20,000 nucleotides of DNA from an uncultured virus (IMG/VR IMGVR_UViG_3300030000_000004) (IMGVR_UViG_3300030000_000004); one strand, 5' to 3'. Positions 1,991-20,000 are shown, numbered from the stretch's first letter. Translations and numbers: made by a program. Notes: generated by a model from the sequence alone, not told the origin.

Positions 1991-3544
1991 GTGATGATGA
2001 AATTCAATGCTACTGACTGGAAAGAACTTTCTGCTCAACAACAGTCGGTTATCTACTGGGTCCTAGAAGATACCGGTTCTCTCGAATTGATGGCCCGTGC
2101 TGGTTGCGGTAAAACGTACACCATCATGAAAATTGTAGATGCAATTGTCAAATTCAAACTCGGTGATATTGCCATCATGGCATATAACAAAGCAATCGCC
2201 GATGAACTGAAACTCAAACTTGAAAAAACCGGATACGATTGGCGTACAGCTCAAGCCGGAACAGTTCACTCATTTGGATATGGAGCTTGGAGAAAGATTG
2301 CTCCAAACGTTCAAATAGAAAACAAGAAAATGTACAACATCGTTAACGAATGTGGATTTGATAAAGGTGGGGATATCTTCATCTTTGCTTCTGAAGCAAT
2401 TGTTAAGCTCTGTGGATATGCCAAACAACGTGCAGTCGGTCATCTTTGTTCAATTGATGATGTGAGTGTTTGGAATGATATGTTTGATCATTTCGGTTTG
2501 GAAAACGATATCACAGAAGACATTGATGTTTCTGATGTTATTTCAGCAGCTCAACGTGCATATCGAATCTCTCTCAAACAATGTCGCGAAGTGATTGATT
2601 TTGATGACATGATTCTTGCCCCTCTGTATTACAAAGCTCGTTTCTGGCCTAAGGATTGGGTAGCAGTTGATGAATCGCAAGACACCAATCCTGCTCGCCG
2701 AGCTTTGGCATTGGCAATGTTGAAACCTCGTACTGGTCGTTTGGTTTCTGTTGGTGATAATCGGCAAGCAATTTACGGGTTTACCGGTGCTGATGCCGAT
2801 TCCATGAATCAAATGAAAATTGCTACTAATGCAAAAACGCTTCCACTCAACATGACTCGTCGATGCCCTAAAGCGGTGGTACGGGAAGCACAACGTTTGG
2901 TTCCAGATTTTACTGCACACGAAGATGCTCCTGAAGGTGTTGTTCGTTCTATTAAGTACATTGATCTTGCTGGTGAAAAGCTTGGTAAGACCGATGCAAT
3001 TCTTTGCCGAAACACTGCTCCACTTATTCAGACTGCATACTCTCTTATCTCAAAGGGAATTGCTTGCCGAGTTGAAGGTCGTGAAATCGGTACTGGATTG
3101 ATTAAACTTGCTAGCCGCTGGAAAATCAAAACCCTCGATCAACTATTGAACAAGCTTGAAGATTATCAAGTTCGCCAAACTGCAAAGTTTATGTCTAAGG
3201 GTCAAGAAGATCGTGTTGAAGGTCTTGTGGATCAAATTGATTGCTTGCGGGTTGTGATTGATCGTTGCTTGATTACAGGTAAGAAAACAATCGAAGCACT
3301 TGTTGATGAAATCAATTCTCTGTTTGGTACCACTAAGGATAACGAGGCTCCAAAGGTATTGACATTGAGCACTGGTCATAAGAGCAAAGGACGTGAATGG
3401 ACTCGTGTTTACCTTTTGGATCGTGCAAAATATCAACCGTCTCCATATGCAAAGAAAGAATGGCAACAAAACCAAGAAGCAAATCTGGAATACGTGATGA
3501 TCACCCGTGCAATGTCTGAATTGATCGACGTTGTGACAGAGTAA
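1991..3544 (+). CDS. Superfamily 1 UvrD/Rep-like DNA helicase
   Basis: Walker A ARAGCGKT, TVHSF, Walker B VDESQD, VGDNRQAIYGFTGA, RRCP, STGHKSKGREW, YVMITRA. True start may be the ATG at 1994 or 1997. Confidence 0.92.
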   Translation: MMMKFNATDWKELSAQQQSVIYWVLEDTGSLELMARAGCGKTYTIMKIVDAIVKFKLGDIAIMAYNKAIADELKLKLEKTGYDWRTAQAGTVHSFGYGAWRKIAPNVQIENKKMYNIVNECGFDKGGDIFIFASEAIVKLCGYAKQRAVGHLCSIDDVSVWNDMFDHFGLENDITEDIDVSDVISAAQRAYRISLKQCREVIDFDDMILAPLYYKARFWPKDWVAVDESQDTNPARRALALAMLKPRTGRLVSVGDNRQAIYGFTGADADSMNQMKIATNAKTLPLNMTRRCPKAVVREAQRLVPDFTAHEDAPEGVVRSIKYIDLAGEKLGKTDAILCRNTAPLIQTAYSLISKGIACRVEGREIGTGLIKLASRWKIKTLDQLLNKLEDYQVRQTAKFMSKGQEDRVEGLVDQIDCLRVVIDRCLITGKKTIEALVDEINSLFGTTKDNEAPKVLTLSTGHKSKGREWTRVYLLDRAKYQPSPYAKKEWQQNQEANLEYVMITRAMSELIDVVTE

Positions 3545-3908: not shown

Positions 3909-4136
3909 ATGATGAAAGAAGTTAATACTGATGTTTTGGCAAATAGTCTAATCTTGGATCGGGCAAAAGTTAGACGTGAACAGTTCAACCCAAAATCACG
4001 AGTGCACCGTGCATCATTGAAGAATTTTCTGAATACTGGAAACTGGGGTGAAATTCAGTTTTATCCTGAGGCTCCTTATGTTTCGGTGCCAGAAACTGTA
4101 CTTCGAAAAATGTCAAGCTTCGCAGTATCAAAATAA
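3909..4136 (+). CDS. Hypothetical phage protein (75 aa)
   Basis: AGAAAG upstream; tight operon packing. Confidence 0.7.
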   Translation: MMKEVNTDVLANSLILDRAKVRREQFNPKSRVHRASLKNFLNTGNWGEIQFYPEAPYVSVPETVLRKMSSFAVSK

Positions 4137-4143
4137 AAGCTTA

Positions 4144-4653
4144 ATGAAAACTGAACTTAATAACAGAATTCTCTGGTTTGATGGTACCAATCAGGTCAAT
4201 CCTGAGGATGTTCCATCACTTCTATTATCAGGTGTTCCAATCGATAAGATTGCTGTCAACAACGATAATGAAGACATTAAGCTCTTCAATCTTTTAGAAG
4301 AAATAAGTATCAAGGCTGGCAAAGCTGAGAATGAACCATTCGATCTTGAATGGAATATTCCTGAAAAGTATAAGAAAATTGATTTGAATTTTTATCTCAT
4401 CGATTCTGTAAAGGATAGATCGGAAGAATATTTCATCAGGGCATCTGATGAAATGGTTGAGATTAGAAAAAGAAAATTAGAACCACTATTCCAAACACTC
4501 ATTTATGTGATTGATAAATTCAAAGAAGAGAATGTTGTTTGGGGTGTTGGTCGTGGATCATCATGTGCATGTCTAATTCTATTCTTGATGGGTGTACATC
4601 TTATTGATCCAGTGAAATATAAAATCCCTATGCATGAGTTTTTCCACGATTGA
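4144..4653 (+). CDS. dnaE: DNA polymerase III alpha (DnaE)-like protein, N-terminal palm fragment (169 aa)
   Basis: R...E...I helix, then WGVGRGSSCACLILFLMGVHLIDPVKY, which matches the DnaE GxGRGS...LxxYxLGITxxDPxxY motif. Ends where DnaE has FERFLN. The ATG at 4144 avoids overlap with the upstream gene. Confidence 0.8.
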   Translation: MKTELNNRILWFDGTNQVNPEDVPSLLLSGVPIDKIAVNNDNEDIKLFNLLEEISIKAGKAENEPFDLEWNIPEKYKKIDLNFYLIDSVKDRSEEYFIRASDEMVEIRKRKLEPLFQTLIYVIDKFKEENVVWGVGRGSSCACLILFLMGVHLIDPVKYKIPMHEFFHD

Positions 4654-4670
4654 TTACTGGCCGGGCAACG

Positions 4671-4678
4671 AATAAATA
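4671..4678 (+). promoter_or_regulatory. Possible T4-type late promoter (AATAAATA)
   Basis: One mismatch to TATAAATA; intergenic, upstream of the groES-containing cluster. Confidence 0.4.
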
Positions 4679-4711
4679 ATATTTATATCAAATATCATTT
4701 GGAGAAAAATT

Positions 4712-4996
4712 ATGGGTAAATTTGCACGCAGTGCTCGTGGTGATATGGTTGATTTCGATCTTCTATCAATCAAACAACAGTTAGCTATGACCCCTACTGC
4801 AGTGGGAGTAGATCAACGAAGAAAATTTGTTGATGAAAAGGATGGTATTCGTGTTAAAACCGAAATACCTAAAGAAGTAAAAATGGCATCCGCTTTAGCA
4901 ATGGCAGTTGCGGCAGTTAATGAATCCGCGGAAGCAGAGACATTTGATACTCCAGCCGTAAAAGCTAAACAATCAAAAAACATAAGGAATAAATAA
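4712..4996 (+). CDS. Hypothetical phage protein (94 aa)
   Basis: Strong GGAG RBS; immediately upstream of the groES-like gene. Confidence 0.8.
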   Translation: MGKFARSARGDMVDFDLLSIKQQLAMTPTAVGVDQRRKFVDEKDGIRVKTEIPKEVKMASALAMAVAAVNESAEAETFDTPAVKAKQSKNIRNK

Positions 4997-4997
4997 A

Positions 4998-5315
4998 ATG
5001 ACTCTACGTCCTCTAGGAAAATCTTTTCTGTTCAAGTTTTGTTCTGACACATATGGAGGAAAATTTGTTGAGAAAAATAGTGGGTTGATTGTTTTGACAA
5101 ATCAAGACCTCGATCAACAGGGAAAGTCTGCTCGATGGGGACAAGTAGTTGCCATTGGTGATAGGGTTGAAATGTTTAACGTTGGTGAATTCGTGCTTAT
5201 CGAAGCTCTTCAATGGACAACCGAAACTAAATTCGAAGGTGAAAAGTATTGGCGTTCTGATGAAGACAAAGTTATAGCAATTGGTGAAGATGAAAGTGTA
5301 ACTTACGCATACTAA
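4998..5315 (+). CDS. groES: GroES/Cpn10-like co-chaperonin
   Basis: LRPLG start, SGLIVL mobile-loop segment, GQVVAIG, VGEFVL, E-D-K-V-I-A-I end; 105 aa. Confidence 0.82.
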   Translation: MTLRPLGKSFLFKFCSDTYGGKFVEKNSGLIVLTNQDLDQQGKSARWGQVVAIGDRVEMFNVGEFVLIEALQWTTETKFEGEKYWRSDEDKVIAIGEDESVTYAY

Positions 5316-5317
5316 AA

Positions 5318-6478
5318 ATGTTTTTTAATTTTCTTGTTTTCTTATCGGCATTATTTCTAGAAGTAATCGGAACATGGGTCTCTGTTATAGGGCTCAGTTC
5401 CATTTTTTCTGGAAGTCCTGTTGTTATTGTTTTAGCTATCTGTTTGGATTTTGCTAAACTTGTTGCTGTGAGTTTCTTGTACAAATATTGGAAATCAATT
5501 AATCTTCTCATGAAGAGTTACATGACTTCGGCCACATTAGTTCTTATGCTTATTACTTCTGTTGGAGCATTTGGATTCTTGAGTAAGGAATTCCAACAAT
5601 CGATATCAGATACCAATACATCGGCCGTCATGATTAAATCTATGGCAGATGAACAAGTGAGATTACAATCAAGAAAATCTGAAATAGATTCACAAATTGC
5701 TAAGTTACCGGATAATATGGTAAAGGGTAGAACAGCTTTAATCAAGCAATTCGCTCCTGAAGTTGAACGTATCAATACTCGTTTGGTTGATATTGATAAG
5801 CAATTACCGTTGCTCAAAATCGAAACGATGCACAAAAGTGTTGAGGTCGGACCTATCATTTATGTTGCTCAAGCTTTCAACACTACACCGGAAGAAGCTG
5901 TTAAGTGGGTTATTTTGATTATCATCTTCGTGTTTGACCCATTAGCTATCACACTTCTTATTGCCGGAAATTTCTTATTGATACTAAGAGATAAAAAGGA
6001 AGTAGTAGAGAAGGTTTTGGAACCAATCAAAGAGACTCCTCCTGTTGTAATTACTCCTCTTGTTCCAGAAATTATTGAACCTAAAAATGAAATAGTATCG
6101 GTTTACACAGAGCCTCAACATGATGAAGATGTGGTGATATCTGTTACTCCTTTAGCAGATGCTGTGTATGGACCAGATTTACCAGTGGTGTCAAAAGTGT
6201 ATCAAGAAATTGTTCCAGAACCTGAACCAATTGTAGAAGCGGTAGTTGAAACTCCTGCTCCAATTCAAGAGGTGATAGAACCTACTGTAGAACCAGAAGT
6301 AGTTGAACCGGTTGCTGAGGTAGAACAGGAACCAGAACGTGAAATTATTCGTTTGAATGAAATCTTAAAACCTAAAGTAAAATCTACTTTAGAAGATATT
6401 CAAACAAATGCAGATGTTACTATGGCATTTGAATCCCACGGTGATCTCGATGTACTATCACAGTACAGCGTCAAATAA
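5318..6478 (+). CDS. Membrane protein: about 3 N-terminal TM segments, coiled coil, a further TM, then an acidic Pro/Glu/Val-rich tail
   Basis: Hydrophobic segments, heptad-like region and a low-complexity EP/VE-rich C-terminus. Confidence 0.8.
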   Translation: MFFNFLVFLSALFLEVIGTWVSVIGLSSIFSGSPVVIVLAICLDFAKLVAVSFLYKYWKSINLLMKSYMTSATLVLMLITSVGAFGFLSKEFQQSISDTNTSAVMIKSMADEQVRLQSRKSEIDSQIAKLPDNMVKGRTALIKQFAPEVERINTRLVDIDKQLPLLKIETMHKSVEVGPIIYVAQAFNTTPEEAVKWVILIIIFVFDPLAITLLIAGNFLLILRDKKEVVEKVLEPIKETPPVVITPLVPEIIEPKNEIVSVYTEPQHDEDVVISVTPLADAVYGPDLPVVSKVYQEIVPEPEPIVEAVVETPAPIQEVIEPTVEPEVVEPVAEVEQEPEREIIRLNEILKPKVKSTLEDIQTNADVTMAFESHGDLDVLSQYSVK

Positions 6479-6487
6479 ACTAAAAAG

Positions 6488-6516
6488 TTTACAATCAGTC
6501 TCTCAAAGTATACAAT
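6488..6516 (+). promoter_or_regulatory. Sigma70-like promoter upstream of the clamp loader
   Basis: (G)TTTACA-17-TACAAT; the -35 resembles the T4 early GTTTAC. Confidence 0.7.
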
Positions 6517-6546
6517 TAAGTATTAACTAACAATCTAATAAAATAT

Positions 6547-7455
6547 ATGAAATCTTCCATTTGGGTAGAGCGTTATCGTCCACGCACAATTTCCGAGGTT
6601 ATCTTCCAAGATACTCGTCAAGAAACCACATTTGAAAATATCATTAAAGATGGTATCATTCCTAATTTGTTATTGTCCGGTTTTCAAGGTACGGGCAAAA
6701 CAACTATCTCTAAAGTACTAATTAGAGAATTGAAGGTTGATCCAGCAGATGTTTTGCGTATCAATTGTTCTGATGAAAAGATTGATGCATTACGGAATAA
6801 AGTATCTGGCTTTGCGATGACGATGCCTATTGGTAAATTCAAAGTAGTGCAACTAGAGGAACTTGACTATTCATCTCTGGAAGGCTTTGCGTTACTCCGT
6901 GGACTCATTGAAGATACTTCTGCTACATGTCGTTTTATTGCTACGTGTAATTATGAAAACAAAATCATCCCACCATTGAAATCTCGTTTTCAACGATTCC
7001 ATTTTCAAGCTCCTGATAAAGAAAAGATTGCTGCTCGAATGGTAGAAATCCTTGATAAGGAAGAAGTGGATTATGATGCTGAAGATTTGTTGACATACAT
7101 CGATGTTGGTTATCCCGATATTCGTCAGACGATTCAGCTTCTTCAGAGCAATACACAGAACAAAAAACTACTTAGCCCATCAAATGCTTCATCTGAAAAT
7201 GATTGGAAATTTGGATTGCTTGATTGTTTGGTAAAAAATGATTGGGTAGCTGCTAGAAAATTGGTATGTACAAGTGCCTCACGAGAAGAACACCAAGACA
7301 TTTATACCTTCCTCTATCAAAATGTTGATAAGATGAAAACAGAAAATAAGGATGCGGTGATTGTCACATTGGCAGAATACATGTACAAGCATGCTTTGTG
7401 TTCAGACACTGAAATCAATCTTTCTGCATGTTTCATTGCTTTGAAGCAAATATGA
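6547..7455 (+). CDS. gp44: Sliding-clamp loader AAA+ ATPase subunit (T4 gp44/RFC-like)
   Basis: WVERYRP, Walker A GFQGTGKTT, INCSD, Walker B variant LEELD, FIATCNY, PPLKSRF. Confidence 0.92.
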   Translation: MKSSIWVERYRPRTISEVIFQDTRQETTFENIIKDGIIPNLLLSGFQGTGKTTISKVLIRELKVDPADVLRINCSDEKIDALRNKVSGFAMTMPIGKFKVVQLEELDYSSLEGFALLRGLIEDTSATCRFIATCNYENKIIPPLKSRFQRFHFQAPDKEKIAARMVEILDKEEVDYDAEDLLTYIDVGYPDIRQTIQLLQSNTQNKKLLSPSNASSENDWKFGLLDCLVKNDWVAARKLVCTSASREEHQDIYTFLYQNVDKMKTENKDAVIVTLAEYMYKHALCSDTEINLSACFIALKQI

Positions 7456-7646
7456 ACTGGTTGAAGCTTCTATTTAAAAAACTGTGTAGTCCATCTGTCA
7501 CTGAAAAAGACATAAAGGAATATGCAGATGCAATAGAAGCTTTGACTAGAATTAAATACAATGAAGAATTTAGGTTGGCATTTTTAATTGATCCCAATTG
7601 GGCATTAGCAAACGTTTGGGATCAATCTTTTGGAGTTACACGATGA
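7452..7646 (+). CDS. Hypothetical protein (64 aa)
   Basis: ATGA start/stop overlap with the clamp-loader gene. Confidence 0.55.
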   Translation: MNWLKLLFKKLCSPSVTEKDIKEYADAIEALTRIKYNEEFRLAFLIDPNWALANVWDQSFGVTR

Positions 7647-7984
7647 AAGAAATTTTATTTATTGATGAAGCAGATGAAGCAGAACATTTAGAATATTGTA
7701 AGTTCATGGATAATTTCGTGGGTCCTCGTCTCAGTATTTTCAAGATGACAGAAGAGGAACGCGCTCGCATAAGAGATTTAAATCCCCCTATAGTAACATG
7801 TTTACATTCAACCCGTTTGTATTTTGATTGGGGATGGAAAGCATGTGGTTATGGCCAGTTAAGTTTCGATTTGGAAAATGGTAAAATTACATGTGCTAAT
7901 GAAGCAATGAGTAAAGAAGCAGTGAGAACGTTAATGCGTGCTTATGTTGATTATTTGGTTGATAATTCGGAGTTTGATAGCTAA
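7643..7984 (+). CDS. Hypothetical protein (113 aa)
   Basis: GGAG RBS, ATGA overlap at 7643 and TAATG coupling to the next gene. Confidence 0.7.
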   Translation: MKEILFIDEADEAEHLEYCKFMDNFVGPRLSIFKMTEEERARIRDLNPPIVTCLHSTRLYFDWGWKACGYGQLSFDLENGKITCANEAMSKEAVRTLMRAYVDYLVDNSEFDS

Positions 7985-8460
7985 TGGCAGAATATAAACT
8001 AGACATCTTTGACACACTTGGTAAATTAAATTCCTCTAAATCAGGAGATATTTATTCTAAGTTGAGTGAGGATGAACGTAAAGGATTCTTTCCACTTATC
8101 GTAATGAGGTGGATGTCTGGTACTTCAGATGAACGTCAGATAATGATGTTGAATGAGTGTGCAAATAAATATGTATTCTCATTGGCAGAACATCCACATT
8201 TGTTGATGCAGCTTCTCCAGGTGGCATCATCTAAAACGAGTAAACGATATCAGTGGATTGGTATCAAGAGCAACACCAAAAAATCAGAATCTTTTAAAGT
8301 TGTTCAACAGTACTTTGAGATGTCTCATCGAGAAGTAAAAATGCTATCTCCATTTCCAAATGATACTGAAATCCTTCAAATGGCAGAAGAGTTAGGATAT
8401 ACAAAAGAAGAGCTGACAAAACTCAAAAAGGAATTTAAAGATGAAAAAATTCCCAAGTAA
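7984..8460 (+). CDS. Probable clamp-loader small subunit (T4 gp62-like)
   Basis: Size, position after the gp44-like gene, and the F-x-P-x-I-x-M-R-W-M-S, N-x-Y...HP-x-L, YQWI and VQQYF...S.RE patterns. Confidence 0.6.
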   Translation: MAEYKLDIFDTLGKLNSSKSGDIYSKLSEDERKGFFPLIVMRWMSGTSDERQIMMLNECANKYVFSLAEHPHLLMQLLQVASSKTSKRYQWIGIKSNTKKSESFKVVQQYFEMSHREVKMLSPFPNDTEILQMAEELGYTKEELTKLKKEFKDEKIPK

Positions 8461-9253
8461 ACAAAAAATTATATCTGAAGACAATCTGGAAATTCTAAAT
8501 GTAGAACAGATTGCCGCGCGGCGCGTTCCAGTAGAAGATGCTGAAATCTCATTAGGCAAAAGTTCAAATTGGTATTGTCATTTCTGTAAAAAGAAATTTA
8601 GTAGTGAGATGTTTTTCCTTAGACATCGTTGTGATGCAAAGGAAAAAGTACAGACGTTGGCTAGTCCAACCGGTCAAGCTGCGTTCGGATATTACAATGA
8701 GTGGTTACGTCAACGTAGGTTTACCCCACAAACTGCAACAACATTTTTAGAATCAAAGCTCTTTAAAACGTTTGTGAAATTTGCACAAATGGTTATTGAT
8801 GCAAATATTGCAAAACCAGAAAAGTATATTTCTATCATGTTGGTGGCCGATTTAAATCCCACTATGTGGTGTAGGTCAAATGCGTATTCTCTGTATCTGG
8901 ATCACATTGATGCGCTTTCAGATCCAATGCAAGAAGTTCAAGATTCAATCAATTATCTTTTCGATCTTTGTGAGAAAGAAGAATGGTTGAATGACGATGA
9001 TACCCCAAATATTAAGGGTGTATTTGTTTTGATGGGAGTCCAACGAATTCTTTCTTACCTTAGACAGAAAAGATTGTCTCCTTGGTTGTTATTCTGTTCG
9101 AAGACATTCAATGAAGTGTTGAAGCACATGGATCCAAGTGAAAGGTCATCTCTCAACAACATCATCAATGCAGAACATTGGGCTAATAAATTCAAAAAGA
9201 ATCCTCAGACTGTAAAAGATATTGTTACGATAACACAAGCATTAGGATTGTAA
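8441..9253 (+). CDS. Zn-finger-containing protein of unknown function (270 aa)
   Basis: YCHFCKKKF...FLRHRC (C-x2-C...H-x-C) followed by a helical region. Confidence 0.75.
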   Translation: MKKFPSKQKIISEDNLEILNVEQIAARRVPVEDAEISLGKSSNWYCHFCKKKFSSEMFFLRHRCDAKEKVQTLASPTGQAAFGYYNEWLRQRRFTPQTATTFLESKLFKTFVKFAQMVIDANIAKPEKYISIMLVADLNPTMWCRSNAYSLYLDHIDALSDPMQEVQDSINYLFDLCEKEEWLNDDDTPNIKGVFVLMGVQRILSYLRQKRLSPWLLFCSKTFNEVLKHMDPSERSSLNNIINAEHWANKFKKNPQTVKDIVTITQALGL

Positions 9254-9254
9254 A

Positions 9255-9824
9255 ATGGATATTGATATTGACACAGTTCCATCATTTAACCCTCTTAGTA
9301 TTTTTCCATGGGTGAGATCAAGTGTAGTTAGGGATCAAACACTCACCCCACACCCATGTGGTTTTCATCCACAGTTTATTCCTAAAGATTTTCAGACTGG
9401 TTTATCTGCTATCCCATATGATAAAGCTGAAGATTTAGGATTCATGAAGCTTGACTTTTTGCATTTACATGTCTATGAACATTTTAATTCGAGACGTGAA
9501 ATTGAACAGCTTTTAGAAGTTGAACCAGATTGGGGTATCCTTTTACTTCCTGAAAAGCAAACAAAACTTTTTCAACTTGCTAAGCATGGAGAAATTTTGA
9601 ATGCTATTAGACCTAAAAACATTGAAGAGTTAGCTGATGTATTGGCACTCATTAGACCAGGTAAAAGTCAATACGTCAAGCTGTATAAATCACAAAAAGA
9701 AAATACACGAAGAATTCTTTATGCTAAAGGAGAAGATGGATTTTCCTTTAAGCGAAGCCATGCAATTGCCTATGCCATGGTTATCGTATTACAATTACAT
9801 CTCATGGGTGCTGGAATCATATGA
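9255..9824 (+). CDS. dnaE: DNA polymerase III alpha (DnaE)-like protein, catalytic C-terminal fragment (189 aa)
   Basis: Starts MDIDID (DnaE PDxDxD), then HPCG (HxxG), KLDFLHL (KxDFLGL), LFQL, RPKNIEELADVLALIRPG and FSFKRSHAIAYA (YxFNKSHxxAY), all in DnaE order. Confidence 0.88.
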   Translation: MDIDIDTVPSFNPLSIFPWVRSSVVRDQTLTPHPCGFHPQFIPKDFQTGLSAIPYDKAEDLGFMKLDFLHLHVYEHFNSRREIEQLLEVEPDWGILLLPEKQTKLFQLAKHGEILNAIRPKNIEELADVLALIRPGKSQYVKLYKSQKENTRRILYAKGEDGFSFKRSHAIAYAMVIVLQLHLMGAGII

Positions 9825-10582
9825 CACAACTCTCAACTACAACCATTAAGCATTTAGAAATTCTCCAAGAAGAATGTGGTGAGCTTATAGTTGCTATTTC
9901 AAAAATTAAAAGATTTGGGTTGCACGGTTTTAATCCAGAGATTGAAAATTCACCTACTAATTTTCAGAATTTATGTTTAGAAATCGGTGATGTTCTCGGT
10001 ATGATCTCAATGGTTGTTGACAGTGAGTTAAAAGAAGAAGGAATGTCACTTGACATGTTGTTATCGTTAGGTGATAAGAAAGTTGAAAAGCTAACCAAAT
10101 GGGAAAGAAAAAATAGAAAATATTGGAGTGGTGCTTCAATAGAACATCTAGAAGACAATCAAATTTTTGTATTTGGATCTAATCCAGAAGGTCGTCATGG
10201 TGCCGGTGCTGCAAGAAGGGCAGTTGCATTTGGTGCAAAATATGGGGTAGGTAGAGGATTGCAAGGTAAAACCTATGCGCTCGTTACCAAAAATTTAAAT
10301 CCGGGTTATGTTGAAGAGTCAACTGGAATAATTTATGAAAATGAAGGATTCAGATCAGTATCAGAAACTTATATCAAACAGAACATAGATGGATTATATT
10401 TTTGTGCTAAAAAGAATCCAGATAAGGAATTCTTAATCTGTTACAAAATATCATCTGCTGGAAATTTGAATGGATATTCTAGCAATGAGATGTGTGACAT
10501 GTTCTTACGTGACGATATTCCAGAAAACATAATCTTTCATCAAACATATAAACCCTTTGTGGATAAATATGTTCCAAAATAA
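9821..10582 (+). CDS. Fusion of a MazG-like NTP pyrophosphatase domain and an 'IFVFGSN..G.HG.GAA' (A1S_2505-like, possibly macro-related) domain
   Basis: N-terminal EECGEL...EIGDV (ExxE...ExxD); C-terminal IFVFGSNPEGRHGAGAA...FGAKYGVGRGLQGKTYALVT. Confidence 0.72.
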   Translation: MTQLSTTTIKHLEILQEECGELIVAISKIKRFGLHGFNPEIENSPTNFQNLCLEIGDVLGMISMVVDSELKEEGMSLDMLLSLGDKKVEKLTKWERKNRKYWSGASIEHLEDNQIFVFGSNPEGRHGAGAARRAVAFGAKYGVGRGLQGKTYALVTKNLNPGYVEESTGIIYENEGFRSVSETYIKQNIDGLYFCAKKNPDKEFLICYKISSAGNLNGYSSNEMCDMFLRDDIPENIIFHQTYKPFVDKYVPK

Positions 10583-10611
10583 TATACTTTTATCAGGATA
10601 TAGTGTATAAT
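10583..10611 (+). promoter_or_regulatory. Sigma70-like phage early promoter (repeated cassette)
   Basis: TATACT-17 (TTTATCAGG...)-TATAAT; leader TAGAAAGTTCTAAATG; close to the copy at 913. Confidence 0.75.
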
Positions 10612-10642
10612 AATCTATATTCAAATATTTAGAAAGTTCTAA

Positions 10643-10855
10643 ATGATACGCTTAACAATTCATGCCCCACACGGTTACAAAGATCAATATCCAAGTGGAG
10701 ACAGTATCCCAATCCCCCAACTTGGTTCAGACGTACGTTGTCAAAGCGATTCATCGTATACATCTGCTGCTTTCAAAGTTATTGCTGTTGAATATGATTA
10801 TCGTGACGTTGAAATTGATGTAACGGTAACTCTGTTTGATATTTCGAAAGCTTAA
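10643..10855 (+). CDS. Hypothetical protein (70 aa)
   Basis: Directly after the promoter cassette. Confidence 0.7.
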   Translation: MIRLTIHAPHGYKDQYPSGDSIPIPQLGSDVRCQSDSSYTSAAFKVIAVEYDYRDVEIDVTVTLFDISKA

Positions 10856-10856
10856 G

Positions 10857-11186
10857 ATGACAACCATTCATTTAGTAGGTTTGTGCAACGACAACCCAAT
10901 GTTGCAACAATATTTGGGGTGTCTCTCAAAGCGTGATTTCAAGACATATGAAATGGTCTTGAATAATTTCGAGAACAGAAGTTCTGTTGTCGTAAATGGG
11001 AATCATTATGTTTTCAAAGACTGGTGCTATGGCGAAGGTTTAACTATCAGAAAAGAATCTGATGGAACGTGGCACTTCACGACAGGTCTTAACTGTAGGA
11101 GTAGCGGTTCATCTGGCATTTTGGCAAACGGTGGTCCAGAGATGGAACAGTTTTATAAATCCCTCATAGGAGAAGGAGAAAAATAA
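10857..11186 (+). CDS. Hypothetical protein
   Basis: ATG 10857, 1 nt after the upstream stop, with GAAAG upstream. Confidence 0.65.
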   Translation: MTTIHLVGLCNDNPMLQQYLGCLSKRDFKTYEMVLNNFENRSSVVVNGNHYVFKDWCYGEGLTIRKESDGTWHFTTGLNCRSSGSSGILANGGPEMEQFYKSLIGEGEK

Positions 11187-11377
11187 TGAAAGTCCATCCA
11201 CAAGAACGAGTTGATGAGTCTCTTGACAATGCAATCGACAATGACTTTGAATTCAGGGACCTTGATCCAGAACAAATCGCAGAAGATCTGTCTGAATACG
11301 ATTCTGACTTTGAAGATGCTGATTTGGATACATTGACAACCCAAGTTAAGGACTGGTTAGTCCGGCATCCAAAATGA
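11186..11377 (+). CDS. Small highly acidic protein (63 aa)
   Basis: AAGGAG RBS, TAATG coupling; 20 of 63 residues are D/E. Confidence 0.75.
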   Translation: MKVHPQERVDESLDNAIDNDFEFRDLDPEQIAEDLSEYDSDFEDADLDTLTTQVKDWLVRHPK

Positions 11378-11637
11378 CAATCTACATTGATAAAGCCGAG
11401 TGGGTCACTAAAGCAAAGAACCCACGCAAGCAATACGCTCACATGATTTCTGATACCTCTCTTGAAGAGCTTCACTTTTTTGCTGCACAAATGGGAATCA
11501 AACGACATTTTTTCCATCAAAGTCGTGCTTGCAAGCATTACGATATTTCTGGTGAACAGATCCAGAAAGTTTTATCTGCTGGTGCATATGAAGTATCATC
11601 AAAAGAAATCGTTAAACTCGGAAGGTATGTTGTATGA
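11374..11637 (+). CDS. DUF4031-like protein
   Basis: IYID...HMISDTSLEELHFFAAQMG...FF...HYDI...AGA. Confidence 0.75.
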   Translation: MTIYIDKAEWVTKAKNPRKQYAHMISDTSLEELHFFAAQMGIKRHFFHQSRACKHYDISGEQIQKVLSAGAYEVSSKEIVKLGRYVV

Positions 11638-11903
11638 GTAATGCACTTGAACCGGGTTGCTTAGCACTAGTTGTTAAATCACAAGAAGGAAAGTCAGTTG
11701 ATTCAATAGTCCAATGTATTGGATTGATTCAACATCCTAAATTTGGGGCTGTTTGGAGAGTTCGTAGTAAATCACTATTGGCTGTTGTCAATGACATGCA
11801 GGTATTTACGGCATATGCTCCTTCATCTTGGTTGAAAAAAATTCAGCCTGGTGAATTGGATAAACTTAATAAGATAGAAAAATCAGAACTATCAAATGTT
11901 TAA
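11634..11903 (+). CDS. Hypothetical protein (89 aa)
   Basis: ATGA overlap; LEPGCLALVV start. Confidence 0.7.
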   Translation: MSNALEPGCLALVVKSQEGKSVDSIVQCIGLIQHPKFGAVWRVRSKSLLAVVNDMQVFTAYAPSSWLKKIQPGELDKLNKIEKSELSNV

Positions 11904-11920
11904 ATTTGAAAGGTATATAT

Positions 11921-12235
11921 ATGAAAGTATCTGATAACATGCAAGTATTCAATCGTTTTGACATTAACGGTATAACTTTCACGTTGGAGATGTCCCATGC
12001 TGAAGATTATTTCATACTGACTTCTCTTAAGAAACCGGTAGATGATAATCAACGTCCAGTAGTGGAATTTTTTGTTGATGAACACTGTAGAATTTTCAAA
12101 TATCGAAAACATGTAGCTACACTCAATTTTACTTATGGTAAATGGGAAGCTCAATTTGGAGATGGGACAACAACACGATCATGCTACTCTGATCTGCCCA
12201 ATGCAGTTTTTCAAATTTTAAAATTCCTGGTATAA
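11921..12235 (+). CDS. Hypothetical beta-rich protein
   Basis: GAAAGG upstream of ATG 11921. Confidence 0.7.
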   Translation: MKVSDNMQVFNRFDINGITFTLEMSHAEDYFILTSLKKPVDDNQRPVVEFFVDEHCRIFKYRKHVATLNFTYGKWEAQFGDGTTTRSCYSDLPNAVFQILKFLV

Positions 12236-12238
12236 CAT

Positions 12239-12484
12239 ATGGACACTAATGACATAATAAAACCTTTCTCTGAACTTCCAGCAGATGCTGATCTAACAAA
12301 TGGTAGTTGGGGATGGGGACATAACACAACAGATTTTGATAAAGCTTGGGTAGAATACGTTGATGAAAATTTAAATTCAACAATCTATTATGTGCCATTG
12401 GTGGTGATTCAAATGCTCAAGTGGACAAATGTTAACACTAAACAAAAAGTGCAGGATGACATTAAGCGGGCCTTGGGTTTGTGA
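12239..12484 (+). CDS. Hypothetical protein (81 aa)
   Basis: Operon packing, 3 nt after the upstream stop. Confidence 0.65.
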   Translation: MDTNDIIKPFSELPADADLTNGSWGWGHNTTDFDKAWVEYVDENLNSTIYYVPLVVIQMLKWTNVNTKQKVQDDIKRALGL

Positions 12485-12490
12485 TATAAT
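12482..12490 (+). promoter_or_regulatory. Extended -10 promoter (TGnTATAAT)
   Basis: TGATATAAT followed by a TAGAAAG leader. Confidence 0.6.
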
Positions 12491-12512
12491 CTAATTTTTA
12501 GAAAGATTGAAA

Positions 12513-12842
12513 ATGAAAGACGCAAAATACGTAATTGAACACACTACACATCTTGACAGTTTTCGGGTGGGTGATAAACATTACTCGCATGTGATTGATA
12601 CCAAGAATGATTCAACGTACATCATCGACGAAGATAACAATATTCTTTTTACAGTCAATTCAGATGCTTATGCATATGATGCAGATGGTGAGCGGATTGG
12701 TAAATTCCACTACGTTGGAACAGCAACTTCTAACAATTGGCGTTTCGTTGATACGACCAATACTGAATTGAAATATTTCCCAACATGGGATTTGATCAAA
12801 AGCGAAACTCAGTTCTTCAAAGAACTGCTCAGTGCAAAATAA
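12513..12842 (+). CDS. Hypothetical beta-rich protein
   Basis: TAGAAAG then ATG 12513. Confidence 0.72.
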   Translation: MKDAKYVIEHTTHLDSFRVGDKHYSHVIDTKNDSTYIIDEDNNILFTVNSDAYAYDADGERIGKFHYVGTATSNNWRFVDTTNTELKYFPTWDLIKSETQFFKELLSAK

Positions 12843-12844
12843 AT

Positions 12845-12873
12845 TTGTAAATTACTCCAGGTTGTGATATAAT
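12845..12873 (+). promoter_or_regulatory. Sigma70-like promoter upstream of cca
   Basis: TTGTAA-17 (contains CAGG)-TATAAT with a TGn extension. Confidence 0.75.
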
Positions 12874-12900
12874 ATTCTTAATTGAAAAACTGGAGATAAT

Positions 12901-14022
12901 ATGAGGATTTTTGCTGTTGGTGGTTCAGTTCGGGATACACTGTTAGGATTGGATCCTTCTGATCATGACTATGTTGTGGTTGGTGCAACTGAACAGGAAA
13001 TGCTGGACTTAGGCTACAAGAATGTAGGAGTCGCATTCCCAGTATTTTTGCATCCAGAAACCGGTGATGAATATGCATTGGCTCGCAAAGAACGTAAAAC
13101 GGGTTCTGGTTATTTGGGTTTCTCTGTTGAGTTTGATCCATCGGTAACCATTGAAGAAGATTTGTTTCGTCGCGATTTGACGATCAATTCGATCGCAATG
13201 GATTTGGAAACTGGAGAAATTATTGATCCATTTGGTGGACAAGCTGATCTGTTTGATCGTAATTTACGTCATACTTCTGCAGCATTTTCTGAAGATCCAT
13301 TGCGTGTAATTCGTCTTGCACGATTTGCTGCCAGATACCCAGATTTCAGAATTGATCCAACAACTCAAAAAATGGCTCACCAATTGGTTATGGAACCGGG
13401 TGAAATGAATTCATTGTCGGATGAACGTTTTATTGCAGAAATGGATAAGATGTTTTCTACATGTTCTAGGCCAGATATCTTTTTTGATTGGTTGTGGCAT
13501 TTTGGTGTTTTCAGTTATGTGAATTTCTTTTCTGATTTATTTGGTTCTGTTACAATGGGATCATTTGAACGTAAGTTCGCACGAAATGCAATGCATGTTA
13601 AATGTCTTCCAGAAAAAGATAGGTTAGCAATTTTTATTGGATTGGCTACATCATTCGATGCAAAACAAACATCAAGTGCAATCCCAAAAAGGTTCAAGGA
13701 CTTGACAGAAAGTATGTTGTTTCTGAATTCCACAGTTATGGATGCAGAAATGATTGGTCTGTTTATCAACATGAATCATGCCTGGCATGATATGACGATG
13801 TTGGATGACGTGTTTATGGCCTTGACGTGTATCGAAGATATGGGAGGTCTTCCTTCAATTGATATTTCGGTTCACATGTTGAGAGGTATGGTGACCGCTT
13901 GCAGTTCAGTTAGTGCTGAAAAATATATGCATTTGGTTGGAAAAGAAATTGGTAGAGCAATTGCTGCCGAAAGATTGGCAGTTATTCAAAAACGTTTGGA
14001 GAATACTTATGAAGGCTTCTAA
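12901..14022 (+). CDS. cca: Class II tRNA nucleotidyltransferase (CCA-adding enzyme), no HD domain
   Basis: VGGSVRD.LLG...DHDYVV, FPVF, EYALARKE, EEDLFRRDLTINSIA, DPFGG, FSEDPLRVIRLARF, ERF..E. Confidence 0.93.
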   Translation: MRIFAVGGSVRDTLLGLDPSDHDYVVVGATEQEMLDLGYKNVGVAFPVFLHPETGDEYALARKERKTGSGYLGFSVEFDPSVTIEEDLFRRDLTINSIAMDLETGEIIDPFGGQADLFDRNLRHTSAAFSEDPLRVIRLARFAARYPDFRIDPTTQKMAHQLVMEPGEMNSLSDERFIAEMDKMFSTCSRPDIFFDWLWHFGVFSYVNFFSDLFGSVTMGSFERKFARNAMHVKCLPEKDRLAIFIGLATSFDAKQTSSAIPKRFKDLTESMLFLNSTVMDAEMIGLFINMNHAWHDMTMLDDVFMALTCIEDMGGLPSIDISVHMLRGMVTACSSVSAEKYMHLVGKEIGRAIAAERLAVIQKRLENTYEGF

Positions 14023-15040
14023 AGAAAAAGTTCTGTTTAAGGTGTTGACTGGTTCTCGCCTTTATGGTACGTTCACTGCTGAATCAGATTATGATTACAA
14101 GGCAGTGGTTCTTCCACCATTGGAAACACTGTTGATGAATATCAAGGTGACCAATCGTAAGGAGAAACCTGAAGGTAAAGGTCAAAATGCAAAAATGCTT
14201 GCGGGTGAAACAGAGACAGAATATCTACCACTTCAAGTTTTCTTGGATGATTTTTTTGCTGGTCAAACCTATGCCATTGAAGTAGCTTTTGCTGCTGCAC
14301 AAGGTTTGACTGAGACAAAGGATCCGTTTGTTGAAACGTGGATGAAGGATATGATTGACCGATTCTTGACAAAGAATGTTAAGAAGATGGTTGGTTATGC
14401 GGTGTCTCAATCCAAGGTTTACGGTTTGAAAACGGAGAGGTTTAAGGCAATTAAAGATGCTGTGCGTCTCATTGAAGAGTATGCTCAAAATGGTTCTCTG
14501 CTTGTTGACTTGAATGATGCAGTTGATCTTCGTCTTAAGCTGACTGAACTTCCATTCGTGAAACCCACCATGATTGAAAATTCACGTAGTGGTTCTGAAT
14601 TGGTGCCAGCTTTAGAAATCTGTGAGAAGAAATTTTCACTGACGAATAAGATTGACACGATGTATCTGTCTTTGAAGAAATCTCTTGACAGTTATGGTTC
14701 ACGTGTTGCTTCTTTTGAGGGTGAAGGTGTGGATTGGAAAGCATTGAGTCATGCTATCAGAATCACAAGTCAAGTAATTGAGCTGAGTGAAACTGGTTCT
14801 ATCGTCTTTCCTAATAATCAAGCTGAGGTGATCAAGCTTATTAAGCAAGGCCTGGTTCCACTTGATGAAGCAACAGAACTACTGGAAATGTTTTTCAGTA
14901 ATATTGATGAGGCTGTTGAATCATCGGTTCTTAAAGAACGAACTCCAAAAATGGAAGAAGATTTCTATATTTGGAAACGAGATATCTTGATTGGTTTATA
15001 CGGTGAAGAAATGATTCAATATTCTAAGCAATTTTCTTAA
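14009..15040 (+). CDS. Pol-beta-superfamily nucleotidyltransferase (RlaP / T4 NrdC.11-like)
   Basis: GSRLYGT...SDYDYK, GYA..Q...Y, DWKALSHAIR. GGAG RBS before ATG 14009, overlapping the end of cca. Confidence 0.82.
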   Translation: MKASKEKVLFKVLTGSRLYGTFTAESDYDYKAVVLPPLETLLMNIKVTNRKEKPEGKGQNAKMLAGETETEYLPLQVFLDDFFAGQTYAIEVAFAAAQGLTETKDPFVETWMKDMIDRFLTKNVKKMVGYAVSQSKVYGLKTERFKAIKDAVRLIEEYAQNGSLLVDLNDAVDLRLKLTELPFVKPTMIENSRSGSELVPALEICEKKFSLTNKIDTMYLSLKKSLDSYGSRVASFEGEGVDWKALSHAIRITSQVIELSETGSIVFPNNQAEVIKLIKQGLVPLDEATELLEMFFSNIDEAVESSVLKERTPKMEEDFYIWKRDILIGLYGEEMIQYSKQFS

Positions 15041-16908: not shown

Positions 16909-17247
16909 ATGGCATATCCAAAAAACTCCTGGGCTATTCTTTCAGCTTCTTGCTTGTTCTCTTCAACAAAAGTCACTCTTGAACAAGTGATGAAGGAATG
17001 GGAAAAAGGAACAATTCTTGTTTGTGAAAAACCGAATGGTTCAGTGGGTTTTATTGCCGGTAGTCAAGGTCACTATTGTGATATTGGTACCCGTCATAAA
17101 TGTCATCATGATCAAACTCTTGCAAATCTCGGTATGTGGGAAGTTAAAAACATTATCAATTACGAAACTATTGATGGTCTCTTGAATAGCACTGCAACTA
17201 TTCCAGTTGCACTGACTCAAAAGGGAACAATCGCAGTATTCAAATGA
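16909..17247 (+). CDS. Hypothetical protein (112 aa)
   Basis: Directly after the promoter cassette. Confidence 0.72.
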   Translation: MAYPKNSWAILSASCLFSSTKVTLEQVMKEWEKGTILVCEKPNGSVGFIAGSQGHYCDIGTRHKCHHDQTLANLGMWEVKNIINYETIDGLLNSTATIPVALTQKGTIAVFK

Positions 17248-17759
17248 AAACTCTACTATCAACAGAACTAAAAGAAAAAGTCACAGCTAGAATACAAGAA
17301 TGTTTGGATATTGCTGAGAAGACTTTTGGACAAAAATTTGACTTGCCACTCGTGCGATATGATATCAGATCGACTGTTGGTGGTATAGCAACCTTTTCGA
17401 AATGGCGAGTAAGATTTAATCTCATTTTCTTGGTTGAAAATGAAGATGAATACTTGCAGCAGGTGGTTCCACATGAGGTGGCGCATCTGATTAATCGTAA
17501 GGTAAATAAAGTACCTGATGGTAGAAAACGTTTGAGTTCTCATGGAAAAGAATGGGCACAGGTTATGGAACTGTTCGGTTTGAAACCAGACGTTACCCAT
17601 TGTTTCGATTGCACCTCTATTGAACCTCGAATTAAAGAGGATAAACCTATCATTAAAGTTTCTAAAGTTCAACGCATCATCACTCAAATGCGAAAGCTTG
17701 ACGATGATGAAAAGGCATATTTAGTGGATCGCATTGATAATGGTGCACTGTACGATTAG
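17244..17759 (+). CDS. sprT: SprT-like zinc metalloprotease
   Basis: GGIA...RFN...VVPHEVAH (HExxH)...HGKEWAQVM...H. Confidence 0.85.
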   Translation: MKTLLSTELKEKVTARIQECLDIAEKTFGQKFDLPLVRYDIRSTVGGIATFSKWRVRFNLIFLVENEDEYLQQVVPHEVAHLINRKVNKVPDGRKRLSSHGKEWAQVMELFGLKPDVTHCFDCTSIEPRIKEDKPIIKVSKVQRIITQMRKLDDDEKAYLVDRIDNGALYD

Positions 17760-18755: not shown

Positions 18756-19616
18756 ATGTTTCACTATGTCTATAGAATAGATAATCTAATAAATGGAAGA
18801 TTTTATATCGGGGTTCATTCAACAGATAAAAATCCGGAGAATGATAATTATTGGGGGTCTGGTAAGAGTATAAAAAGTGCTATTACTAAACATGGTAAAG
18901 AAAATTTTGTTAAAACTGTTTTGGGATGTTTTGACTCAAGAAAAGATGCTGATCTCAAAGAAAAAGAACTAGTGAATGCTAAGACATTAGCAAACAGACG
19001 GTGCTATAATATAGTTCTTGGCGGAGGAGGTAATGCGTGGACAGGAAAGTCACGAGGGGTAGTGAAAAGAAAGCCACACTCTGAAGAAACAAAATCGAAA
19101 ATAAAAATTGCTCAGATTGGTAAATCTAAGCCAAAACATTCTATAGAATCAAATGTAGCAAAAAGTTTAAGACAGACGGGAAAACCTAATCTCTTTATGA
19201 GAAGTTTAGAAAGCAAGAAAGTTATAGAAAAAATTGCTAACACCGCTAAAAAAGATTATGCTTCTGGAAAAAGAATCCACCACTATAAAGGTAAGCATAG
19301 AAGTGAAGAAGACAAATTAAAAATAAGCAATTCATTAAAAGGAAATATTCCTTGGAATGTTGGGTTACCAATGTCAGAAAAACAGAGATGTATAATTTCT
19401 GATGCCAACAAAAATAAACATGTTAAAGTTGAAAAAGAACTAATAAAAATAAATCACACATATGATTCATTTAAAGAATGGGTGATAAGTGAATTTTTAT
19501 TGGGAAACGGTCCAATAAAAATTCTTAAAAAGATACCAGAACAGTGTATAATAACTGAAACACCAATCAAAAAGATTATCAAAGATTATAAGGAATCCAA
19601 ATGTCAAATTTTGTAG
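18756..19616 (+). CDS. Free-standing GIY-YIG homing endonuclease with NUMOD3-like repeats (Seg-like)
   Basis: YVYRIDN.INGRFYIG, YWGSG, F.K..L, E.E.V...YN...GG, then KPHSEETKSKI, KHSIES, KHRSEEDKLKISNSLKG, PWN.G. Confidence 0.9.
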   Translation: MFHYVYRIDNLINGRFYIGVHSTDKNPENDNYWGSGKSIKSAITKHGKENFVKTVLGCFDSRKDADLKEKELVNAKTLANRRCYNIVLGGGGNAWTGKSRGVVKRKPHSEETKSKIKIAQIGKSKPKHSIESNVAKSLRQTGKPNLFMRSLESKKVIEKIANTAKKDYASGKRIHHYKGKHRSEEDKLKISNSLKGNIPWNVGLPMSEKQRCIISDANKNKHVKVEKELIKINHTYDSFKEWVISEFLLGNGPIKILKKIPEQCIITETPIKKIIKDYKESKCQIL

Positions 19617-20000
19617 AAATTATCAAACAGTGTGAAAGTGCAAATGGTGCTGGCACCAAAAAAATGATTCAATCAGCATTATCAAATGCTGATGAAACAG
19701 CAAGAAAACTTATTATTGCTGCATTGAATCCATATGCAGTATATGGAGTTCGAAAATTTAACATGCCACAATCTGGTCCAGTGAATTCATCAAATGATGC
19801 ATATGATGAATTTTTCAATGTTTTGGATCGTTTGGTTTCTCGTGATTTGACTGGTGATGCTGCTCGAAATGCGGTCACTGGAACACTCGGCGGATTCTCT
19901 ATTGAAGAACAGAATTACATTGTTAGGGTTCTTGATAAAGATTTAAAGGCTGGATTCAGTGCAGAAACTGCTATGAAATCATGGGGCAAATTTGATACAT
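19601..20000 (+). CDS. ATP-dependent DNA ligase, N-terminal part (T4 gp30-like), truncated by the window end; not in ORF track
   Basis: AAGGA RBS, ATG 19601, frame open to the end: MSNFVEIIKQCES...ALNPYAVYGV...LDRLVSRDLTGDAARNAV...RVLDKDLKAGFS, resembling the gp30 N-domain. The catalytic KxDG motif is not in the window. Confidence 0.78.
   Translation, partial: MSNFVEIIKQCESANGAGTKKMIQSALSNADETARKLIIAALNPYAVYGVRKFNMPQSGPVNSSNDAYDEFFNVLDRLVSRDLTGDAARNAVTGTLGGFSIEEQNYIVRVLDKDLKAGFSAETAMKSWGKFDT

Follow-up and report, generated by a model that had tools for sequence, protein, structure and literature searches.

What kind of protein is encoded by two short genes that each resemble part of a DNA polymerase and lie 4.6 kb apart in a phage genome? 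The question was raised by a stretch of 20,000 nucleotides from an uncultured virus (IMG/VR IMGVR_UViG_3300030000_000004), which is referred to in full as the window. Two of its open reading frames (ORFs), here called N-half and C-half, resemble adjoining pieces of the family C DNA polymerase DnaE. A preliminary description of the DNA had read them as a miniature, intein-free, split DnaE-like polymerase. The analysis favoured this identity. With a probability of roughly three in four, the pair was judged to be a split minimal DNA polymerase III (Pol III) alpha whose two chains would complete one active site between them.

Re-derived translations reproduced the coordinates, motifs, lengths and spacing given in that description. 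The halves add up to 358 amino acids (169 + 189), and 4601 nt lie between the N-half stop and the C-half start. The C-terminal end of the N-half (translated ORF 4144-4653) reads ...VVWGVGRGSSCACLILFLMGVHLIDPVKYKIPMHEFFHD and holds the G-R-G-S motif as G136, R137, G138 and S139. The start at position 4144 agrees with the family consensus MKTEL...LWFDGT in the homologue alignment, and about 90 residues stand ahead of the DnaE-like part. The C-half opens with MDIDIDT, and HPCG (33-36), KLDFL (65-69), LFQL, ALIRPG (131-136, in the context ALIRPGK) and FKRSHAIAY (165-173) are also present. Its catalytic Asp triad consists of D2, D4 and D67, accompanied by K65. The spacing between D6 and H33 is 26 residues. 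D4 and D67 are 63 residues apart, compared with 152-153 in Escherichia coli and Taq DnaE (Taq D465-D618; E. coli D403-D555).

Both ORFs were assigned to family C by profile searches. The N-half matched Pfam PF07733 (E 1.1e-10), with residues 90-167 corresponding only to positions 17-94 of the 260-position profile, and the C-half matched the finger family PF17657 (E 1.1e-5). Two PHROG families annotated as 'DNA polymerase' covered the proteins end to end, PHROG 11127 the N-half (E 7.8e-37) and PHROG 11778 the C-half (E 7.4e-56). A family profile was made for each half, with 85 homologues for the N-half and 113 for the C-half. Positions 94-174 of the N-half profile aligned with E. coli DnaE 313-393 and Taq 375-455 (E 1.5e-7), and the C-half profile began at Taq 460 (SMPDIDTD) and continued over 601-709 and 800-824 (E 7e-7). 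In E. coli DnaE numbering, the N-half stops near 393-394 and the C-half begins at 400-401. Because the family profiles match adjoining regions, the halves were placed as consecutive segments. Counted along the alignments, R137-G138-S139 of the N-half fall on E. coli R362-G363-S364; D2/D4/D6 of the C-half align with Taq D463/D465/D467 and K65/D67 with Taq K616/D618. We take these E. coli and Taq positions to be the catalytic residues of DnaE.

The structural comparison gave the same placement. An AlphaFold2 model of the C-half was obtained with a predicted local distance difference test score (pLDDT) of 97.0 and a predicted template modelling score (pTM) of 0.89. Ranks 1-17 of a Foldseek search with this model were all family C polymerases. 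In VIA-align, residues 1-189 superposed on Taq 462-840 with Z 10.0, a root-mean-square deviation of 3.5 Å and 187 aligned residues, and on E. coli 401-780 and PolC 972-1297 with Z 9.6 each. Fourteen family C chains scored Z 6.3-10.0, and the next chain, the best non-polymerase, Z 4.0. The assignment of the fragments to consecutive DnaE regions, as first proposed, was thereby upheld by the family profiles as well as by Foldseek and VIA-align of the C-half model: both ORFs are consecutive DnaE-type pieces of palm and fingers. The 189 C-half residues span 380 residues of DnaE, and about 190 residues of E. coli 401-780 are absent. Judged from the model, the C-half has lost the thumb and some of the fingers, in agreement with the thumb loss proposed earlier. 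The N-half ends 6-7 residues short of the DxD motif, and the C-half opens with M-D-I-D-I-D. The cut falls inside the catalytic Pol-beta-like nucleotidyltransferase fold of the palm, and the GS nucleotide-binding element and the metal-binding Asp of this one fold are carried by different proteins.

The accessory domains of DnaE were searched for in the 35 window ORFs scanned against Pfam. No match to PHP, HhH or OB families was found among them, as the preliminary description had held, and PF02811 (PHP) did not match either half. Hint and intein families likewise gave no Pfam match in the N-half or C-half, and neither half is long enough to hold an intein half, which bears out the intein-free reading. 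The C-half extends only to about E. coli 780 and lacks the clamp-binding motif, the OB fold and the tau-binding region. No processivity or proofreading element was detectable in either half. A PIP-box-like tail of the N-half (KIPMHEFF) was considered and rejected, since in the alignment this stretch corresponds to LLFERFL, a structural helix of DnaE.

Compared with DnaE and PolC (2hnh, 2hpi, 3e0d, 3f2b), the pair shares the Pol-beta-like palm with the GS motif, the DxD...KxD triad and the finger motifs, and the C-half superposes on these structures with Z 9.6-10 over 181-187 residues. Palm, GS motif and three catalytic Asp are as in family C polymerases but are distributed over two chains. DnaE and PolC are single chains of 1100-1400 amino acids, whereas the window pair, at its 358 amino acids, lacks PHP, thumb, clamp-binding motif, OB fold, tau-binding domain and complete fingers. 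Cyanobacteria also assemble a family C polymerase from the products of two distant genes, which are joined by the Npu/Ssp DnaE split intein. There, the pieces carry intein parts, are spliced to a full-size chain and are cut elsewhere. The window pair, in contrast, has no Hint match and no room for an intein, and is cut inside the catalytic fold.

The putative catalytic and finger residues were all conserved. D2, D4, K65, D67 and P135 were invariant in the 113 C-half homologues, and R99, E103, G134, G136, R137, G138, S139, S140 and D155 in the 85 N-half homologues, at mean column identities of 25% and 38%, respectively. C-half residues conserved to at least 90% were D6, H33, G36, R134, K137, K166, H169 and Y173. 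The motif DxDx[D/E/N/S/T] stood within the first 30 residues of 246 of the 270 C-half relatives listed, and the remaining 24 take in many of the list's truncated entries. Among full-length C-half representatives, 97 of 98 had it within the first 25 residues.

The split mini Pol III is very common in big phages. At 90% identity, 959 C-half and 534 N-half protein clusters were counted in searches that covered near-query lengths only. IMG/VR contained at least 596 C-half and at least 591 N-half loci, and all of the 80 N-half ORFs fetched were at most 260 amino acids long, stop to stop. In tblastn searches of phage records, the C-half was found in 98 and the N-half motif region in 136. The top match for both was Ralstonia phage RsoM2USA (51% identity for the C-half and 44% for the N-half), the closest relative in culture, followed by XacN1 and Xoo-sp13. 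The C-half matches also include phage Sharanji, which grows on E. coli K-12. The GAP32, 121Q and PBECO4 group was matched in both searches, and PA5oct, Atu_ph07 and SCTP-2 in the N-half search. Record counts of C-half and N-half per genus agreed, with 34/34 for Escherichia, 8/8 each for Erwinia and Salmonella, 4/4 each for Xanthomonas and Yersinia, and 11/10 for Klebsiella. The same split was seen in phages whose C-halves share only ~35% identity. A megablast search of window positions 4000-10000 against phage records gave no match. Both halves are annotated as 'hypothetical protein' in the RsoM2USA record, and the passages on DNA polymerases in the RsoM2USA paper (PMC8504454) leave them unmentioned. 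One 16.9-kb virus fragment (G001) was 100% identical over 3165 nt (11699-14863) to window 8064-11228 in reversed orientation and was therefore regarded as the same phage.

The halves also occur together. Each of the four complete genomes from cultured phages (RsoM2USA, GAP32, XacN1 and Alishewanella phage Slicko01) carries both halves as single copies together with a family B polymerase; the N-halves and family B polymerases were identified in whole-record searches and the C-halves as tblastn matches. The family B open frame comprised 880-1013 amino acids in the complete relatives, with two adjoining frames in Slicko01. The latter phage is non-jumbo, with a genome of 141 kb, and carries both halves. 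Five IMG/VR records were at least 90% complete, and in four of them (G002, G009, G010, G012) the partner half was found. Both halves lay in the same fetched locus in 22 cases, representing 20 distinct contigs, and in every one of them the N-half preceded the C-half on the same strand at a distance of 0.76-9.3 kb. The distance was 34 kb in GAP32 and 15 kb in XacN1. Complete RsoM2USA showed no PHP match (PF02811), whereas the control genomes all matched, and it gave no further PF07733 or PF17657 match. In these relatives the pair is not the main replicase and accompanies a family B polymerase.

Two natural fusions turned up in a search of 1.84 billion protein representatives. P0356 (375 amino acids) consists of an N-half, a 9-residue linker (NKEGIYNIA) and a C-half beginning DFDID...; it matched the window N-half in BLASTP (2e-21), and a three-way alignment also supports the fusion. 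P0366 (398 amino acids) is permuted, with the C-half first and an N-half segment GKGSS...IDPVRY after it.

That such genes might not be unique had been anticipated, and they are indeed already in print. Iyer, Anantharaman, Krishnan, Burroughs and Aravind (2021, Viruses 13:63, PMC7824862) described a 'minimal, split DNA polymerase III alpha' from sequence. The passages on this enzyme assign it to the T4-like jumbo phages of group 2.2, which also encode a family B polymerase, named as the primary replicase of that phage group. The split pair was suggested to aid the family B enzyme in one-strand synthesis or repair and was proposed to serve as a model for the ancestor of the C-family enzymes. 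PHROG 11127 and PHROG 11778 correspond to its two units. According to the same passages, the family consists of an N-terminal nucleoside triphosphate-binding protein and a C-terminal Mg2+- and template-binding protein with genes apart, which the window shares; other Pol III domains are lacking, and a family B polymerase and an RFC-like clamp loader with its small subunit occur alongside. In the window, the N-half is a separate small protein bearing the GS motif, the C-half is a separate small protein with the Mg2+-binding Asp and the template-binding part, and the large and small subunits of a T4-type clamp loader are both encoded. Measured against these passages, the window is a further member of the family, and nothing essential differs. 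The main text of that paper (PMC7824862) contains none of the terms C2H2, zinc finger, gp31 and GroES. The bracketing of the clamp-loader genes, the C2H2 protein before the C-half, the fused and permuted forms and the 141-kb phage were not found in its passages on the family.

The window is a plus-strand phage gene run of ~36% G+C, and the genes around the two halves are listed in Table 1. An additional ORF of 128 amino acids and unknown function lies between the gp44-like and gp62-like genes. Between 7598 and 10582, neighbouring genes adjoin or overlap at their start and stop codons, and for that reason the genes of this section look co-translated.

Table 1. Genes in and around the split polymerase locus of the window.
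Feature	Position	Strand	Remark
UvrD-like helicase	1991-3544	+	Followed by two small unknown ORFs before the N-half
N-half of split minimal Pol III alpha	4144..4653	+	169 amino acids, nucleotide-binding GRGS motif
Small conserved protein, 94 amino acids	4712..4996	+	No family match; between N-half and Cpn10-like gene
Cpn10/GroES-like (T4 gp31-like)	4998..5315	+	PHROG 931 E 2.3e-5; PF00166 E 0.002, below the Pfam cut-off
Predicted membrane protein	5318..6478	+	No significant family match
Clamp-loader large subunit (RFC / T4 gp44-like AAA+ ATPase)	6547..7455	+	PHROG 168 E 1.5e-75; PF00004 E 2.4e-12
Clamp-loader small-subunit-like (T4 gp62-like)	7984..8460	+	PHROG 225 'clamp loader' E 3.6e-6; PHROG 11758 E 9.3e-21
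p270, C2H2 finger and all-helical domain	8441..9253	+	PHROG 11058, unknown function, E 2.1e-41
C-half of split minimal Pol III alpha	9255..9824	+	189 amino acids, catalytic Asp triad, shortened fingers
MazG-like fusion protein	9821-10582	+	Start overlaps C-half stop

Gene order was compared in 80 IMG/VR loci picked for the C-half and 80 picked for the N-half, 60 of which held at least 3.5 kb downstream. Upstream of the C-half and on the same strand, p270 was present in 69 of the 80 loci and the gp62-like gene in 68; 7 of the 11 loci without p270 hold less than 1.3 kb upstream. An N-half lay within 10 kb of the C-half in 5 of the 80 C-half loci. Downstream of the N-half, the gp44-like gene was found in 59 of 60 loci, the Cpn10-like gene in 54, the gp62-like gene and p270 in 38 and the C-half in 18. 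Homologues of the 94-amino-acid protein occurred in 26 of the 60 N-half loci and also in RsoM2USA, and those of the predicted membrane protein in 35, being collinear in RsoM2USA. The whole RsoM2USA block is collinear with the window. The window looks like the full block, consisting of N-half, small ORF, Cpn10-like gene, membrane protein, gp44-like gene, gp62-like gene, p270 and C-half, with the two polymerase halves on either side of the clamp-loader genes. The block is disrupted in other lineages, but each half keeps 'its' clamp-loader gene. Helicase and, in relatives, primase genes are also nearby; in GAP32 and Slicko01 these are primase-helicase genes. This arrangement would be consistent with a functional link of the halves to the clamp loader.

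Two further neighbours of the C-half were noted. The MazG-like fusion protein joins a MazG-like nucleotide pyrophosphohydrolase domain (residues 8-94) to a domain of unknown function from PHROG 2072 (110-249), and homologues follow the C-half in 2 of the 80 loci and precede it in 2 more. A stand-alone 'DNA polymerase III epsilon'-like exonuclease is annotated 4.4 kb upstream of the C-half in GAP32 (L085, 1-568) and 2.3 kb downstream of it in XacN1 (L087, 7868-8461); none was seen in the window.

The stop of p270 lies 1 nt before the C-half start codon. The protein has one classical C2H2 finger with invariant C46, C49, H62 and C64 (C-C-H-C). PF00096 matches 37 of 48 p270 family members, and the family profile matched designed and eukaryotic C2H2 fingers (E 3.6e-8). 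The finger is followed by a helical domain, modelled by AlphaFold2 with pLDDT 90.8. A Foldseek search of the p270 model against the PDB returned nothing at E <= 1e-3. The best score in a wide VIA search was Z 5.6, to AAA+ lid-like helices at residues 75-155, and the T4 gp59 C-domain scored Z 4.8, both within the noise range for helical proteins. In the protein atlas, only viral 'hypothetical' clusters were found for p270. The C2H2 finger is the only solid feature of this protein.

The proposed mechanism divides one palm between two proteins. The N-half would supply the helix-strand-G-R-G-S element, whose counterpart in DnaE (E. coli R362-G363-S364) grips the triphosphate of the incoming nucleotide. 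The C-half would supply the strand with the metal-binding D2 and D4 together with the third Asp and the lysine (D67, K65), and also shortened fingers, which retain the conserved basic and aromatic residues R134, K137, K166, H169 and Y173. Because each chain lacks part of the active site, we infer a non-covalent heterodimer, in which the two chains would associate without splicing to form one active site. The heterodimer gains indirect support from the cut within the catalytic fold, the co-occurrence of the halves and the existence of a fused and a permuted protein. Since PHP, thumb, clamp-binding tail and OB fold are missing, the enzyme would be expected to be short-patch, distributive and dependent on partners. 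As far as can be read from sequence, the pair most likely represents a two-chain accessory DNA polymerase of the replisome. It might act at primer-template junctions by the clamp loader, where it would extend primers that the family B polymerase then takes over, or it might fill short gaps in repair. Work at primer-template junctions is suggested because the genes sit around the clamp-loader genes and, in GAP32 and Slicko01, near a primase-helicase; the role in primer extension or gap filling is put forward with low confidence. As a functional analogy only, DnaE of Bacillus subtilis is likewise a second family C polymerase beside a main replicase and is said to extend RNA primers beside PolC, in work of Sanders and colleagues from 2010. 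Unlike the window pair, it is full-length, single-chain and clamp-binding.

A more elaborate arrangement, regarded as rather improbable, is a clamp-loader-centred module of N-half, Cpn10-like protein, gp44-like and gp62-like subunits, p270 and C-half. In it, the mini Pol III would be no free-standing enzyme, p270 would be a third subunit that replaces the lost thumb or DNA-binding parts, and the module would work where primers have just been laid down, extending them and passing both primer and clamp on to the family B polymerase. If so, it would be a phage counterpart of the switch from Pol alpha to Pol delta or from DnaE to PolC, and would join a bacterial-type catalytic core with an archaeo-eukaryotic-type clamp system.

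Other activities have to be weighed against an accessory polymerase. One of them, in line with the non-replicase role inferred in the preliminary description, is that of a two-chain nucleotidyltransferase which has given up templated polymerisation. It might add nucleotides as a terminal transferase, initiate synthesis in the manner of a primase, produce signalling nucleotides, or nucleotidylate proteins or nucleic acids. Pol-beta-fold enzymes include many non-polymerase transferases, and such a function would fit the loss of the thumb and of about half of the DnaE span 401-780, the lack of a clamp-binding tail and of OB or PHP domains, and the presence of a family B polymerase for bulk synthesis. 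However, the family C finger motifs ALIRPGK and FKxSHAxAY are nearly invariant, the whole C-half superposes on the palm and fingers of DnaE/PolC and on nothing else, and the genes lie among those for the clamp loader, helicase and, in relatives, primase, but not among defence or signalling genes. A transferase was accordingly considered unlikely, and DNA work at the replisome was preferred over protein nucleotidylation because the finger motifs are retained and the position at the clamp-loader genes is fixed.

A role as the main replicative polymerase, with the missing domains provided in trans by p270, the clamp loader or a DnaQ-like exonuclease, would explain the linkage to clamp-loader genes and the 'Pol III epsilon'-like exonucleases annotated near the C-half in GAP32 and XacN1. 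It is nevertheless very unlikely, given the full-length family B polymerase in all four complete relatives, its naming as primary replicase by Iyer et al. in the passages on that phage group (PMC7824862), and the failure to detect any processivity or proofreading element in either half. Least credible of all are decayed, non-functional DnaE remnants split by gene insertion. The interruption of the gene and the loss of large parts of DnaE speak for decay, but homologues of the same length number in the hundreds and keep their catalytic residues invariant at 25-38% mean column identity. The split recurs in phages with C-halves only ~35% identical, the C-half folds at pLDDT 97, and neighbouring start and stop codons are tightly coupled. 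Pseudogene-like decay, which the preliminary description had named among the findings that would speak against its reading, was not seen, with lengths and catalytic residues preserved; the hundreds of same-sized relatives with invariant active-site residues rule it out.

Several observations weigh against a two-chain accessory polymerase. The first ~90 residues of the N-half had no known match. One 90%-complete contig with an N-half (G011) and three large incomplete contigs with a C-half (42-79% complete) yielded no partner. Each fusion protein is represented by a single sequence on a short contig (2.4 and 3.4 kb), no relatives of P0356 were found in IMG/VR, and a word-based search found no longer forms; the fusions could be rare or artefactual and are supporting, not decisive. 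Common descent of related phages, and not function, may account for the conserved gene order. The family B polymerase of the window's own phage is deduced from its relatives. Bench work on activity, binding or expression of any family member was not found in the literature searches.

A longer, unsplit form was seen in two uncultured phages (IMG/VR L037:16079-17806 and L063:8745-10442), where this 'midi' Pol III coexists with the C-half gene. It is a PHP-less DnaE-like protein of 566-576 amino acids, stop to stop, encoded 7-8 kb downstream of the block of gp62-like gene, p270 and C-half. The protein comprises the whole of PF07733 (18-260, E 2e-40 to 8e-43) and a finger domain, and matches the N-half and then the C-half profile with ~70 extra residues at the position of the thumb. 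Both contigs are fragments, that of L037 being estimated as 16% complete.

As a two-chain accessory polymerase, the pair would represent the most compact form known so far of the polymerase core used in bacterial replication. Its active site would be built from two chains, and it is widely distributed in large phages. Should it prove active, it would show how little C-family catalysis requires, and it could serve as a compact, splittable polymerase scaffold. Since a family B replicase is present in all complete relatives, its role bears on how polymerase work is divided in large phages. The window adds an example and context to a published discovery, not a new kind of system. This context is modest, and the position at the clamp-loader genes and the zinc-finger neighbour supply concrete partners for testing.

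Further genes were recognised downstream in the window. A CCA-adding/poly(A) polymerase-like nucleotidyltransferase (12901-14022; PF01743 E 6e-18, PHROG 2244 E 3e-95) and an RlaP-like RNA-repair nucleotidyltransferase of the Pol-beta family (13913-15040; PF10127 E 6e-9, PHROG 388 E 8e-56) are encoded by ORFs that overlap by 110 nt and look like an RNA-repair module. A DUF4031 protein (11374-11637, E 8e-22) and a protein with an SprT-like metalloprotease domain (17244-17759; PF10263 E 8e-14) were also found. A GIY-YIG/NUMOD3 homing endonuclease (SegE-like, 18756-19616) stands directly before an ATP-dependent DNA ligase gene (19601-19999), which runs past the window end.

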